Source of the DNA: an uncultured candidate division WWE3 bacterium
GTDB taxonomy: Bacteria > Patescibacteriota > WWE3 > UBA101185 > UBA10185
Direction of reading: 5' to 3'
DNA length: 64,000 nucleotides
Assembly (NCBI GenBank): GCA_903879985.1
Contig: CAIRNR010000007.1
Coordinates: forward strand, 346,880 to 410,879
Shown in pieces: positions 12,001 through 36,000 of the stretch; positions within the stretch are counted from its first letter, which is position 1, and the number at the start of each line of letters is the position of its first letter. Made by a program: the position numbers.

Positions 12001-15000
12001 AATGATTGCAGTTCTCACTTCTTTCACGGTATAGAGCCATAAACTATAGGTTGCTTTAATTTCCTTTTTAAGCTATAATAACAGCATAAATGTCAGCAAA
12101 CCGCGTAATATCTGCGGATATAATCTCTTGATCTGGAGGAAAAAATGAATACGAGTGATTGGTTGCATTCTTTTGAAACTGCAAAGTTGCAAAAATCAAT
12201 TGACGCCGCGGTGGCATATTTGATGGGGTCACCAGAAGTGGTAAAAGTTATTTCCCCGAAAGGAATGATTTTTGCCTACAAATCTGAAGAAAATCCCAAC
12301 CTCTGGATTGTTTCCTCGATGGAACCTCACAACGAAGCAGCTTGTGGGTTCGACGCTGACGGGAGCGATCCAAAAAGATACGGACTTTCAGGAACCATAT
12401 CCCGCGGCAACAAGGATACCTGGAGGACGAATGAGAAAATTCACACAAAATACATGGTGGATTTTCTTTTAAACAGCTCTCAGACTCCTCCTGAGCTTCG
12501 AGCCGCCATACATAACGTTACGGAGGGGCTGAACCAAATTCTTAAACTGCATTAAGTCTTTCTTTAAAAAGGGACAAACAGCAAAATAAAATTACTGCTT
12601 GTCCCCTAACTTAAGTCTATTTAACCAAAGTAGGTTTAAGTTAGCTATATTAATCGCACAAATTATGCGAATCAATCCAAAATATGAGGAGAGAAAAATG
12701 GAAAACGATAATGAAAATGCGGCTGTAGCAAACTATATGATTGGCTTGTTTACAGGATTTTTCATGGGAATGTTGGGCGTTACGCTTCCTAATTTATTAA
12801 CAGCTATTACACGGAACAAATTTGATTTAAATATCTTAATAATAGTAATAGTACTAACGGCCCTTTCTAGTGGAATGCTAATTTTTGGGAAACGCCTGAT
12901 TGCCGCCATCTGCAAGTAAAATCAAAACCATACACAAGAAGGAAGTGGCAAATGAAAAAAGCTTTAGTTGGATTTGTAGTATTTGACGTCCTGGTTCTTC
13001 TAAGCATGTTTGGCCTGATCTTCGTGCCTGCAGTATCCCAATATGCCGATCAGATGAAAGAAGAAAATCTGACAGCTGGATATTGCATCTCGCACTTCGA
13101 TCAGCACGACCAGCATATAGACAAAATCGTGGGCTGGGTAAATAACAAAATCGACGGGCTCGCAATGAGGTATGTATATAACAATTGGTCCATACACATG
13201 CCCGGAGATTTCCCGACTACCGAATTTCCCTATCAAGATTCTGATTTTGTATTATGTCTCAAACGGTAAGGAGTTCATGTACGCACAAACCCCAATCGAC
13301 AAAAATCGCTTGGGGTTCTTTTTTTCTTAAAAAACTGATAATAAACCTCGAATAAAGTTCTGTATGGGGAGCCATAACTGGCACAGGCTATAGGTTGACT
13401 GTTCTGACACTTACGCATATAATCCTCATAATCACTATTCATAAACCATTCTTTTTCCCAGATTAGGAGAGATTTACATGAACAATCGCAAAGTCAAACT
13501 GGTTATTATCCTTTTATCTATCCTGAGTCTTTTACTTCTAGGCTACATAGCTTATAGAATTTCACAGGAAAATATAAAGGTTACAACCAAAACCTTGGCT
13601 TCAAACCCTAGTTTGTACTTTAGCTGGGATGTTGAAACCGAAGGTATCGCCGAACCCTCAGGAACAGTAAGAGAAACAAAACTCTGTCCAACCGGGAGAG
13701 GCGCAGTGCTAATGACAGCAGAATACAGGTGGTACACGCTCAAGGGTGAAGACGGAGTAAAGTTCCTTGTTGTAGACGCAATAAATGATTGTGGCCTACC
13801 TACTGCGAATGAAATCCCAACCGGAATACCCATACGAGTGCAGGGGCAGGTGTGGAACGGGGAACCTCCCTACATCCGAGTTTTTACAACTGAGATAATT
13901 AAGTAAACCTAGATTGGAGGAACAATGTTAAGTAAATTAGATATTTCCGCAGGAGAGTTGCTTGTTGGTTTAGCAACGATATCAAATTTTCTGGTTTTTA
14001 TTCTGTCCGGAGTAAAAGATTATTCAAAAGTACATGTTGGCATCATGCTTTTCGTGAACATAGGAATGATCGTTTTGGGTATTATATGGATGCGCAAAGA
14101 CAAAGCGAGCATTTACTGGATACTTGCAGCATTAGGTTTAGTCTTCGCTATACCCAATCTGCTTTATTGCTTTTAACGTAAAGGCAACAAGCAAAACCCC
14201 AACCGACAAAAATCGTTTGGGGTTCTTTTTTATGAAAAAACTCTACCTTCAAGTGCTTCCCAGATCCAAAAATTATTGGCAGGAAACCTGTACCCTATAG
14301 TTTGACTTGAGGTGTGTTTTACTTTATAATCACGCCACAGTCATTAATCAATCGCAAACAATTTGTTGCGAATTATATCCAAATCAAGGAGACAGAAATG
14401 AATAAAATAATAGTACGTGAAATCCATGAAGAAAGCCCGGAAAAGAGCTCGTTATACGCGACTATGGGCACACTTCTCAGCCTTGTGATAGTTGCAGGCG
14501 TTGCTTACTGCGTGTGGTTCCTCATTGGAAAAATTTTGCCGATTTTGGCAATTTTGTACCTGGTTATCATCGCCATCGTGGAACTCAAAAACCTGTTTAC
14601 TGGGTGGAAATACGTACCAGCAGTCCCGGCCTCACTGAAAAGCGTGATTGATAACGGGGTAGAAAAAGCAACGGCGGTAGCCAAAGAAAATGATATCGAA
14701 ACCGATGAAACTACCACCAAAGGATACGCGGTATTACTGTGGGGGGTTATGCTCATCACAATACTGGTGATGCTGGCTCACTACACAATTACCGGTATAT
14801 TGTTCATCACCTTTGGCAGCAGCCATATCGGATACATCGGATATTTAGGCTTCGCCCTGGTGATCTGGAACTTTCTACGCGTCATATTCATGACAAGGAA
14901 GGTTTTCTACGTGTTTAAGCACGCAGATCAGACTCCAGAAGACAAAGGTCCAGTGAGCTATTGGATTTGGAATATGGTATCCAAACTGCGCAGCACACTT

Positions 15001-33000: not shown

Positions 33001-36000
33001 TCTTTGACCATCTCCGGTTCCGTCAGTCAGGCGTAATTGATACCCTGCCCATCTATCGATAGCCTTTGATTTTGAACTATCTATTAATGTACGAAGCGTA
33101 CCATCGGTTGACGATGCCCCAGTAAGAAACGTTCCTCCACGCTCTCCTATTGCCTCGAGAGAAAAGTCTGTACCCAAGGCAGCAGCTAACATGCCGCCTA
33201 AGGCTGTTTTTGTAACCCAGTTATCATTTAACACATCGTAATATTGTAATGAAGACCATGGTGCCGTAGCCACAGCAGAGAGCATCCAAATTGCTCCACT
33301 TTCAATTACGAAACTGGAAGTTGCATCAGGAAGGGTATCCCAAGTATCTACAGTTATATCCGAAGATTCAATATAGTAATGAGATTGCGCACCGGCCGTT
33401 GAGGCAGGTATGGCATAAGGAGCAACTGCTGAAAACGGATTATTATTCCAAGGCTCTAACTGTTGATAGTTTATATCGTAAAAATATAAAGTATTTGCAT
33501 CGTTATATAAAACTTTTCGTAGCTGAGATAAACCTGTACCAAATACAACGCGTACTTGATGCCCAATATGCTGATTAATTGTCCATTTTTTGGTGGTATC
33601 CTGAATTTGGTTTGCATTTGTTGTTGCAGTGGCAACTCCATGCTCCATAATTACTGCGTCGGCTGTAGAAAGTATTTGTCGCCTCTGCCCAGAACCTGCA
33701 CCTGCAGTAATTCTAATGTAATAATCGTTTAGTAAATCTTTGCGTAAGCCCGCTATTGTTAATGATGTAGATGTAGAACCCAAAACGTTTCCACGAAAAC
33801 CTTCATAAGTGGAGTACCTTAAACTTACTGTTGTAACTGCGGCGGTATTAGGTGATGCTAATTGTTGCCAACCATCCGCCCATGTATCGTATCTCCAAAA
33901 AGTACTGTTTAAATAATATAAATAACGATCGTTTCTTCCCTCACCACCACACATAGTGGATGTAGCTGATGCAGCCGCAGGAGCAAATCTCAACCATTCC
34001 CATGTTGGCAAATCAATTTGTTTTTTAAGGTTATAGGTAGATGCCATAATATATGTAGGTAGTTACTTATAATAGTCTACACTAAGGCTAAGTTCTAAGA
34101 CAACGGATTTTGGAATTACACGAAACTTTCTTCAAGTGCGATATAGCACGATAAAGACCCCATAGTTTACCCAAACACCACGATATAGTACAATACTAAA
34201 AATAATCACAAACCGATAGTCAAAAAAAGGAGACGAAAATGTTACTCGGACTTGGTATATATGTTGTCGCTGTTTACGTTTTAATCCTGGGACACGAGCT
34301 TGGACACTTTACAGCCTCAAGACTTTTAAAGGTAAGAATCAGCAAGTTTGGTATTGGTGCCATAAAAGTTTTAAGTTTCAAATATATTGGCACCACATTT
34401 GAATTTGGCATCCTGCCTGTGGTTGGATATGTAGAGCAAAATTCGAAAGATGTGAAGAATCTGCAGTTATACAAAAAACTGATCATCATCTTAGCTGGAC
34501 CTTTTGCTTCGGCCATAATGGGATTCATATTCCTGGTTTTTTCTGGGGTGGGAATTGAAGTTGCGGCAGTGACGAGCGCACAACTCCCCATAGCCATACC
34601 ATTTATGATCATGGCCAAACCTTCGATATTGCTCTTAACCAAAGACATGAACAATATCTCCGCCACCATGCACTTGGCCAATTTACTAGTTAGTTCCCCG
34701 GCACAGACATTGGGACTAATTGGGATAATCAGCCTGGGTGTCGCAGGGATTAATCTATTCCCGATACCTTTGCTTGATGGTGGCCAGGCACTTTTTGAAA
34801 TTTTAAAAGGACCGCTGGGAAAATACAAGGTCAAGCTGTGGGAAATTGGCAATGAAATAAGTATCCTATCAATGGTAAGAACTACGTTGATTGTGATATT
34901 TTTCCTGTATCTAATTTACACTCTTGTGGCCGAAATATATTTCAGGCTTGTCCAGACATGATGAAGGAATTTGGTACGTCAGAGCTTCTCAAGTTGTTAT
35001 TTGGGAGGCTCTTTTTTTGGGGTTGCCGAGCGTGCTATAGGTTGACCGAACAAGCGATTTAGGTTAAAATGACAGTATCAAATAGGAAAGATACCAAAAA
35101 GGAAAAGAGGAAGAGATGAAAAACAGAAACGAAGTGTTTTTGACTGTTGTTTTGGGTGTCATTTTTGTACTGTGCATTGCCTCGGCCTGCACAGCAACTG
35201 TAACGTTTACACCTACAGCCACAACAGCAACTCCGGCGCTGGAAAACCTGATGCCTGACCCAACGCGCGTGGCAGAGGATTTATTGAAAAAATGCCCAGA
35301 TATTTTCAGAACGGATCCAATGCTGGATCTTGACGATGATTGCACGAGCGATTTGGGTATATTTACAAATGGCGATATCTTAATGATGGCCGAAGCAGCA
35401 CGTCAAGCAAATATCGTCTACAAAATTTCTGAGGCCACATATAACTGCGATGGAAAAGTATGTGTAACGCAGGGCTTCAAAGATTTCAGAGTGCGTATGG
35501 GGTATGAAAGTGACTTTCGCATGAAGTTAAATTTGCTCATGGCAACGAAAGTCCAGTCAAAGTAACACAAAAGGCACCCTATGAAAAAACATAAGGTGCC
35601 TTTTCTCTTTTCACAAACAATAAAAATTACTTAACAAACGTTAAAACTGCAACCGCAGGAACAACACTAGAATCATTTCCCTCGTTAACTCGCCAAGTCA
35701 TAGAGCGTGTGGTTGTATCGTAAGACATTATCGCCTCGCCAGTACTTCCATTTAAAGTTTTATAGTGCATGTATGCTTCCCCATCGTGAATGAAACCAAC
35801 AATACCAACGCCAAGATCAAGTGAATAATCGTAAACACATTCTTGAGTATCAACGTTCAAGCTTTTTACACAATAACCTCCATAAACATAGGCTCCGTCG
35901 GTATTTAGCATTAACTCAAAATCTGATTGGGCCGGATCCGTGCGTTTCCATGTACCTTTGTAGGTATAAAAAATGTCATCTTTTAAATAGCGAGAAAATA

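Follow-up and report, generated by a model that had tools for sequence, protein, structure and literature searches.

A seven-base tag adjoining the -35 box probably marks a separate class of accessory-gene promoters in a candidate division WWE3 bacterium

Additional sequence elements at the upstream edge of the -35 box are known from several bacterial promoter classes. Class II sites, such as those of lambda cI at PRM, the PhoB boxes, the Spo0A 0A boxes and the CRP/FNR sites at -41.5, abut or overlap the -35 box. Here we describe an element in a comparable position from a member of the Patescibacteria. Most of this group is uncultured; the genomes are tiny, recognisable regulators are few, and to our knowledge almost nothing is known about the control of transcription. 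The analysed stretch of 64,000 nucleotides (nt), called the window in the following, comprises positions 346,880 to 410,879 of contig CAIRNR010000007.1 (assembly GCA_903879985.1). The best named matches of its MutS protein belong to candidate division WWE3 (57-58% identity), followed by other Patescibacteria. Proteins of the organism are encoded on contigs as long as 715 kb. Seven promoters in the window carry the sequence CTATAG(G/T), hereafter the tag, next to the -35 box. Because the tag sits on orphan genes of a variable segment and recurs in relatives, it probably distinguishes a class of accessory genes that is under separate control.

Like the class II sites, the tag touches the upstream edge of the -35 box, where a bound protein can contact region 4 of the sigma factor, and it marks a set of promoters that may be regulated together. 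The described sites, however, are usually dyads or tandem repeats of 14-22 bp combined with a weak -35 box, whereas here a single 7-mer accompanies a near-consensus core. GerE of Bacillus, with the consensus RWWTRGGY, binds beside the -35 of sigma-K promoters. The string TATAGGT of the tagged promoters fits WWTRGGY and is likewise a short site against the -35, which offers a lead towards helix-turn-helix proteins of the LuxR/FixJ type, but the first base of the tag is C instead of a purine and no gene of the GerE family was seen in the window. The proximal subsite of UP elements (about -46 to -38) and the Spx-alpha -44 element (AGCA) of Bacillus are also extra elements upstream of the -35, at a position like that of the tag, and they alter the class or the strength of a promoter. 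In contrast to UP elements, which are degenerate A/T tracts at highly expressed housekeeping genes, the tag is invariant and not of this A/T-rich, degenerate kind, with G or C (C, G, G/T) at three of its seven positions. Prophage morons resemble the tagged units as autonomous sigma-70-type promoter-gene units, often with a terminator, which are found in variable or mobile DNA and encode unrelated small proteins. However, the targets of the tagged promoters have no phage-family match, and a shared invariant promoter tag is not part of the moron concept. The promoters of T7-group phage RNA polymerases, which end with ...CACTATAGG, contain the string CTATAGG as well. This resemblance is coincidental; the tag is not preceded by the 23-bp conservation of those promoters and is followed by a bacterial -35 and -10 instead. 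A description of the motif was not found by text searches of the literature, and in a cross-phylum promoter survey the only organism of the Patescibacteria with mapped transcription starts is Nanosynbacter lyticus (PMC12641261).

All seven sites lie on the plus strand and consist of CTATAG(G/T) followed by TTGnnn, N17 and TAnnnT (Table 1); one of the tags is CTATAGT. The -35 hexamers (TTGACT twice; TTGACA, TTGACC, TTGATA, TTGATT and TTGCTT once each) are all near TTGACA, the spacer is 17 nt at every site, and the -10 is TATAAT at four sites and TAATAT, TATACT and TAAAAT at the others. The distance between tag and -35 is zero at six sites and +1 at the seventh (30245). At six of the seven sites the seventh base 3' of the -10 is an A preceded by a pyrimidine, and this A is the predicted transcription start; for promoter 1 it lies at about 12086, which gives a leader of 59 nt with a hairpin (CCGCG...CGCGG-like). 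The predicted starts of promoters 2 to 7 are at about 13430, 14337, 26920, 29451, 30288 and 35077. Among the sites the tag varies less than the -35 or the -10 hexamer. When the seven intergenic regions were aligned, only the tag and the core hexamers were conserved. We rejected a duplicated intergenic segment as explanation because the flanks, spacers and leaders of the sites do not align, and paralogous target genes because the target proteins are unrelated to one another.

The architecture is not a random occurrence in the window. CTATAGG is found ten times (4.0 +/- 2.0 expected) and the six bases CTATAG 18 times (9.7 expected), and once the seven promoter copies are removed the remainder is at expectation. 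Non-promoter copies are neither depleted nor enriched in the window, and avoidance of the palindrome CTATAG as a restriction site was therefore rejected. A comparison with shuffled sequence, which had been suggested together with the preliminary description of this DNA, gave an enrichment within the window: a strict scan (at least 6/7 matches in the 7-mer, at least 9/12 in -35 plus -10, Markov shuffles as controls) returned six sites versus 0.48 expected. Of the 29 sequences in the whole window that best match the sigma-70 consensus, five bear the tag, all with a 17-nt spacer. The presence of the tag is all-or-none: in the window and in the motif-bearing loci of other genomes the 7-mer upstream of a strong -35/-10 match agrees with the tag either at 6-7 or at no more than 4 of the 7 positions. 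The class can be written as the degenerate pattern CTATAGKTTGNNN-N16-18-TANNNT, and CTATAGGTTGACT could serve as a tag-bearing probe sequence.

The preliminary description had counted ten or more sites. Seven of them carry the full architecture, whereas the tags at 25841 and 30774 are at background level and the site at 1835 was rejected, since its plus strand is without credible -35 and -10. Sequences with only 5/7 matches in the 7-mer occur in the window about as often as expected (32 observed versus 24.5 +/- 4.6). The sites at 25841 and 30774 are plausible promoters in intergenic DNA, but for this reason their 7-mers are unproven. Two further sequences are similar to the tagged promoters. 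One is a degenerate site at 34160, which was absent from the first list. The other, at 17966-18002 (+), reads CTATAGT-T-TTGATA N17 TAGAAT and is antisense to the minus-strand open reading frame (ORF) 17782-18567 of a surface-protein operon; no plus-strand gene with a Shine-Dalgarno site lies downstream of it.

The tagged sites are restricted to one part of the window. All seven lie inside the variable segment between 11.75 and 35.6 kb; neither the 40 kb of backbone that the window contains nor the 10 kb beyond the window has a tagged site. The segment is bordered by two blocks with conserved synteny, TrpRS-DivIC-XerC-suf-DUF1189-tRNA and 379aa-mutL-mutS-PMT-rpoD-dnaG. In the closest relative (74% identity in MutS) the space between these flanks is taken by another segment, about 11.5 kb long, which encodes among others an AAA_25 protein, a SocA-type antitoxin and a serine recombinase. 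Available strains, which were compared for polymorphism of single units, are 99.8-100% identical. The G+C content is 38.7% in the variable segment and 36.6% in the backbone, and strong Shine-Dalgarno sites precede 53% of the genes in the former versus 10% in the latter (p = 4e-4). In the backbone the distance from the end of a -10-like hexamer to the start codon is exactly 6 nt in ten genes, and 5-10 nt in 20 of 72. Such leaderless-looking genes, for example 53656-54261(-), 60985-62445(+), 60100-60960(+), 5061-5417(-), 3757-5004(+) and 59122-59742(-), often have TGn before the -10 and mostly no Shine-Dalgarno site. Backbone genes mostly use -10-only promoters, which often appear to be leaderless.

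Backbone promoters having a -35 are not tagged either, as seen for the promoters of the suf regulator, of a tRNA gene and of xerC. The promoter of the suf regulator, TTGACA-17-TATCAT, is conserved in three relatives and untagged. The absence of the tag from housekeeping promoters, which had been noticed from the sequence before, was confirmed for rpoD, dnaG, suf, the DivIC/FtsB-like gene and the nine tRNA genes of the window, and no leaderless gene carries it. Likewise, the association with accessory genes holds, as no housekeeping promoter in the window or in about 150 kb of backbone DNA of relatives is tagged.

Two pairs of orthologous promoters indicate that the tag is conserved under selection. 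The 146-amino-acid (aa) target of promoter 4 has one other homologue cluster among 1.84 billion representatives. The contig that encodes this sole homologue (40-41% identity) begins with (C)TATAGG TTGATT N17 TATAAT. All six visible bases of the tag are retained, together with five of six bases of the -35, six of six of the -10 and six of 17 of the spacer; the length of the leader differs. In a pair of WWE3 orthologues with 66% protein identity CACTATAGGTTGAC is kept, while the upstream flank is divergent and contains an indel. These comparisons support the view that the tag is a discrete element under selection.

Related genomes were proposed as a further check, and there the tag indeed recurs, in WWE3 as well as in other Patescibacteria. 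The pattern used for the scan of a genome collection and of metagenomes, TTGAC followed by N17, corresponds to a 16-nt spacer between the hexamers, whereas the sites in the window use 17 nt, and for this reason the scan did not retrieve the contig of the window itself. With this spacer at least 17 exact matches were obtained in the genome collection, of which at least ten belong to Patescibacteria, a group that by our estimate contributes a few per cent of the scanned bases. Among the matches listed are five from WWE3, three or four from Saccharibacteria and others from Levybacteria and Peribacteria. The loci reached in this way contained further copies that had been found independently of the scan pattern, and these are more informative. 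In a stretch of WWE3 genome GW2011_GWB1_41_6 four of the five strong -35/-10 matches bear an exact CTATAGG, three of these with a 17-nt spacer, and behind each tagged promoter come a leader, a Shine-Dalgarno site and a hypothetical gene of small size. Clusters of tags were also found in loci L019, L049 (four copies in 5 kb), L066 and L043, and additional copies in L128 and L133. More distant relatives have 0-1 canonical site per 16-23 kb of mostly backbone DNA, and in the lineages of L129, L131 and L132 the tag is rare or absent. The distance between tag and -35 in relatives includes a few variants (-1, +1 and +2 to +3); it is mostly, though not absolutely, fixed. As offset variants we noted CTATAGT or CCATAGT with 2-3 extra bases before TTGAC, or CTATAG joined directly to TTGAAA, at L133 1953 (-), L049 4052 (+), L008 5490 (-) and L135 1287 (-). 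A box AATAAAGTTCTG is located about 30-36 nt upstream of the tag at window position 13388, L127 19357 and L049 87.

Viral contigs were scanned as well. The pattern with a 17-nt spacer gave 33 matches in 17 families, the control 7-mer CATTAGG 19 matches in 12 families, the control GGATATC one match and the 16-nt-spacer version none. These counts show no specific association with phages; viral relatives of two of the target proteins were not found. Several marine viral families (L078, L086, L091, L094, L096, L097, L099, L100) contain CTATAGG TTGACA N17 TATAAT with a strong hairpin terminator 1-3 nt further on, which has the appearance of a very short promoter-plus-terminator unit or of a gene for a small RNA.

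A parallel to the window is provided by the close relative represented by L127 and L130, where four tandem units with CTRTAGK TTGAYT N17 TATAAT precede unrelated small genes (L127 18794-20860, corresponding to L130 17241-19188, minus strand). Their location is the syntenic variable segment, where a serine-recombinase element adjoins them; none is present on the backbone. Spacer and leader are almost the same in three of the four tandem promoters of L127 (...TTCCCTTTTTAGCC TATAAT...ATAAATCGTTATTAAACCGC-loop-GCGG...), the hairpin stems of which differ by compensatory changes, and the spacer and leader of window site 12044 resemble this module. Here it could be argued that the 7-mer is a functionless passenger of a promoter-leader module, a mobile promoter that spreads by duplication or recombination. 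Near-identity of three or four L127 copies over about 100 nt in spacer and leader, the similarity of site 12044, and the location of the units in tRNA-flanked segments rich in mobile elements would fit. However, the spacers, flanks and leaders of the seven window sites are unrelated and yet their 7-mer does not vary; in the orthologous promoter, at about 40% protein identity, the 7-mer is retained but not the spacer. Moreover, a neutral tag should erode faster than the -35 and -10, while in fact it is better conserved than both. We consider a passenger role to be quite improbable.

The explanation we favour is that a separate sequence-specific factor reads the tag beside a primary-sigma promoter and controls this promoter class as a group; we put its probability at roughly 45%. 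The core is that of an ordinary promoter of the primary sigma factor (sigma-70/sigma-A type) with TTGACN-like -35, 17-nt spacer and TATAAT-like -10, to which CTATAG(G/T) is added as an extra cis-element at about -42 to -36, flush against the -35. A DNA-binding factor conserved in WWE3-like Patescibacteria would read the 7-mer beside region 4 of sigma and would switch the whole class jointly, either by repressing or silencing promoters that are strong in themselves or by acting as a class II-type co-activator. Promoters of this class would drive self-contained units of promoter, leader, strong Shine-Dalgarno site, one to three small genes and often a terminator, which encode lineage-restricted orphan proteins in variable, tRNA-flanked segments. 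From the sequence we infer three parts of this scheme: the start of transcription at these promoters, the reading of the tag by a protein outside core RNA polymerase, and the direction of control. A class II-type activator site had already been proposed in the preliminary description, and the tag does abut the -35 at the class II position; the near-consensus core is atypical for such a site, though, and a repressor or silencer fits equally well. With core elements so close to the consensus, activation is no more likely than repression or silencing.

Several observations weigh against a separate factor. In the short stretches fetched around the motif-rich loci no regulator gene was shared, and no candidate for the factor was found. 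With 7 bp, including the 6-bp palindrome CTATAG, the tag is short for a dimeric regulator, and near-consensus cores are unusual for activator-dependent promoters. Identical 7-mers in deeply separated classes of Patescibacteria would be unusual for a regulon and would better fit a general component of the transcription machinery. Finally, the targets are not conserved between lineages, so they do not form a classical conserved regulon. The 499-aa PAS protein encoded next to promoter 5 (27920-29419) was tried as regulator candidate and rejected, being a membrane sensor without match to a DNA-binding domain.

The tag could instead be read by RNA polymerase itself as a lineage-specific third promoter element, either as a proximal UP-like subsite of high information content for the alpha subunit's C-terminal domain or as an upstream extension of the contact made by sigma region 4. 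It would then boost -35-dependent, leadered promoters in genomes where the default promoters are -10-only. The fixed position flush with the -35 is in line with this idea, as is the company of the best core promoters and the common 7-mer of WWE3, Levybacteria, Saccharibacteria and Peribacteria loci. By our own geometric reasoning the TATA core, at about -41 to -38, would expose its minor groove on the face of sigma region 4; in E. coli the alpha C-terminal domain binds that face of the DNA. The tag is missing, however, from the promoters of tRNA genes, of groES/groEL and rpsT in relatives, and from other backbone promoters including conserved ones with a -35. Its absence from tRNA, chaperone, ribosomal-protein and backbone promoters argues against a general strength element of the polymerase, and the all-or-none invariance is unlike the known degenerate, A/T-rich UP elements. 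A separate reader is favoured because an UP-like element is hard to square with these absences and this invariance, and direct reading by the polymerase appears unlikely to us, although it has to be taken seriously.

The canonical region 4.2 of RpoD speaks against a polymerase-read tag too. The protein (42817-43932) comprises regions 1.1 to 4 without a C-terminal extension, and the DNA-reading helix of region 4.2 is almost identical to what we take to be the corresponding helix of E. coli sigma-70. A specificity determinant in the primary sigma factor, the other possibility raised in the preliminary description, is unlikely because of this canonical region.

An alternative factor of the sigma-70 family with primary-like preferences for -10 and -35, whose region 4 reads a longer -35 element (CTATAGGTTGAC), would explain why the tag defines a discrete promoter class on accessory genes only. 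A mobile element just past the window encodes a small protein that weakly matches sigma region 4. This element is an insertion of about 6-7 kb near smpB, beyond the right end of the window (L072 2900-9700), and its genes encode a serine recombinase, a SpoVG-like protein, this weakly matching protein (165 aa) and SEC-C/DUF5677 proteins. The insertion is contained in a JGI contig but missing from GCA_903994745.1, another assembly of this organism. TTGACN-17-TATAAT is moreover the consensus of primary sigma factors, and 13 bp would be a long recognition element for one helix-turn-helix. Among the window proteins scanned with Pfam/NCBIfam, a set that leaves out about 30 smaller ORFs, a second sigma gene was not detected. 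Such a factor is in our opinion improbable.

That the Patescibacteria, at least WWE3 and neighbouring classes, have a conserved and previously undescribed promoter tag with a cognate reader, be it a factor or a domain of the polymerase, dedicated to mobile orphan units, is a wider claim about which we are doubtful. If it is true, promoters of this lineage would contain an accessory-gene code that sets mobile, fast-evolving orphan genes apart from leaderless, -10-only housekeeping genes. A tag of seven bases is easily searched and could serve as a handle on the set of accessory and host-interaction genes. It would help to locate transcript starts and by that to improve the gene starts of orphan genes, and in combination with phylogenetic profiling it could point to the reader protein. 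The difference between a leaderless backbone and leadered tagged genes would also bear on the question how newly acquired or newborn genes are expressed in reduced genomes.

The features of the tagged promoters and their transcription units are compiled in Table 1. The leaders in the window are A-rich and 27-61 nt long (25-66 nt when the copies of relatives are included); a strong Shine-Dalgarno site comes next, and then one to three small genes. The first proteins of the units are of 89-217 aa and cytoplasmic, membrane or lipoprotein-like, and none has a Pfam or PHROG match. In unit 1 two proteins were scanned, that of 12145-12555 and that of the longer ORF 12599-12919, which covers the second gene (12952-13269 was not included), and neither matches Pfam. 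The 217-aa protein of unit 3 matches only itself among 5.8 billion proteins. The tagged promoters also allow gene starts to be corrected, as had been suggested for 14398. There the longest ORF begins with a GTG at 14314 inside the promoter, whereas the ATG at 14398 has an AAGGAG site and is the start in public gene calls too. Two further starts were moved, from 26941 to 26947 and from 29468 to 29480.

Table 1. Coordinates of the variable segment, the tagged promoters, their targets and the candidate degenerate sites in the window.
Feature	Coordinates	Strand	Description
Variable segment	11752..35626		about 24 kb between tRNA 11680-11751 (beside DUF1189 gene) and 379-aa gene/mutL/mutS block
Tagged promoter 1	12044..12079	+	CTATAGG (12044-12050) TTGCTT N17 TATAAT
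Tagged promoter 2	13388..13423	+	CTATAGG TTGACT N17 TATAAT
Tagged promoter 3	14295..14330	+	CTATAGT TTGACT N17 TATAAT; overlaps mechanical ORF start GTG 14314
Tagged promoter 4	26878..26913	+	CTATAGG TTGATA N17 TATAAT; conserved in orthologous promoter, contig L134
Tagged promoter 5	29409..29444	+	CTATAGG TTGACA N17 TAATAT; overlaps last 11 nt of PAS sensor gene 27920-29419
Tagged promoter 6	30245..30281	+	CTATAGG-T-TTGATT N17 TATACT; one extra T before -35; TGn before -10
Tagged promoter 7	35035..35070	+	CTATAGG TTGACC N17 TAAAAT
Transcription unit 1	12145..13269	+	12145-12555 (136 aa), 12665-12919 (84 aa, membrane), 12952-13269 (105 aa); terminator 13287-13333
Transcription unit 2	13478..14176	+	13478-13906 (142 aa, N-terminal membrane anchor), 13925-14176 (83 aa, three membrane segments); terminator 14194-14240
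Transcription unit 3	14398..15919	+	14398-15051 (217 aa, five membrane segments), double-hairpin element, 15264-15641, 15662-15919; terminator 15934-15980
Transcription unit 4	26947..27846	+	26947-27387 (146 aa), double-hairpin element, 27505-27846 (113 aa)
Target of promoter 5	29480..29749	+	89 aa, cytoplasmic; corrected start with GGAGG site
Target of promoter 6	30327..30710	+	127 aa, no family match
Target of promoter 7	35116..35565	+	149 aa, signal peptide, lipobox-like LCIASAC
Candidate degenerate site	25841..25875	+	CTCTAGG TTACAT N16 TAAAAT; precedes 25919-26293 (124 aa); statistically indistinguishable from chance
Candidate degenerate site	30774..30809	+	CTACAAG TTGACG N17 TACACT; upstream of 30842-31132 (96 aa); 7-mer 5/7
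Candidate degenerate site absent from the first list	34160..34194	+	CCATAGT TTACCC N16 TACAAT; upstream of M50 peptidase gene 34239-34961

Five units are closed by a terminator-like hairpin with a T-run. The terminators of units 1, 2 and 3 belong to one sequence family (AAACCCCAAnCGACAAAAATCGnTTGGGGTTCTTTTTT), another copy of which lies at about 29770-29810; for two copies the identity is 87-95%, according to how much of the sequence is compared. Those of units 1 and 2 are each located 101 nt upstream of the next tag. The ends of the units also bear on the possibility that the 7-mer is a recombination core which bounds insertable gene cassettes in the manner of integrons. A 7-bp element at the 5' edge of every unit, the tandem arrays of L127 next to a recombinase gene, and units that start right after tRNA 3' ends in L017 and L058 would agree with such a role. 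Against it, the register with -35 and -10 is always fixed, the unit ends show no attC-like imperfect inverted repeat but, after five units, the terminator-like structures, and the tag does not fit GTTRRRY. No integrase of the integron type was seen, only a XerC-like integrase and serine recombinases, and we regard a recombination core as very improbable. Concerning the tRNA genes, tagged units begin 12 nt after the tRNA 3' end in L017 (~57 (-)), 1 nt after it in L058 (~8187 (-)) and about 290 nt after it in the window (11680-12050). Units beginning after tRNA genes fit a tRNA-adjacent insertion of accessory DNA.

A double-hairpin element of about 90 nt is present in three copies (12567-12655, 15079-15172 and 27392-27475), each between the first and the second gene of a tagged unit and without a T-run after it. 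Its sequence is GGGACAA.CAGC...GCTG.TTGTCCC followed by CTAACTTAAGTCTATTT...AAAGTAGGTTTAAGTTAG, and three pairs show compensatory changes. The element has no Rfam match and among the fetched loci was found only in this organism. The Rfam scan of the window returned tRNAs only. A leader RNA structure common to all units was not found; hairpins occur in a subset of the leaders.

Two observations concern other genes of the window. The longest ORF of dnaG, 44035-46074 (-) (679 aa), and the ORF 45838-47886 (+) (682 aa) overlap by 236 nt at their 5' ends, which indicates that one or both mechanical starts are placed too far upstream. In the variable segment, within 21912-24722 (-), the gene of a 615-aa protein has a tandem array of about seven repeats, each of 120-144 nt (mostly 126-132 nt, about 42-43 aa). 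The protein is 36-37% identical to an adjoining 280-aa protein, and the minus-strand operon of both genes encodes large proteins with MG2, CARDB and dCache matches and otherwise none to Pfam.

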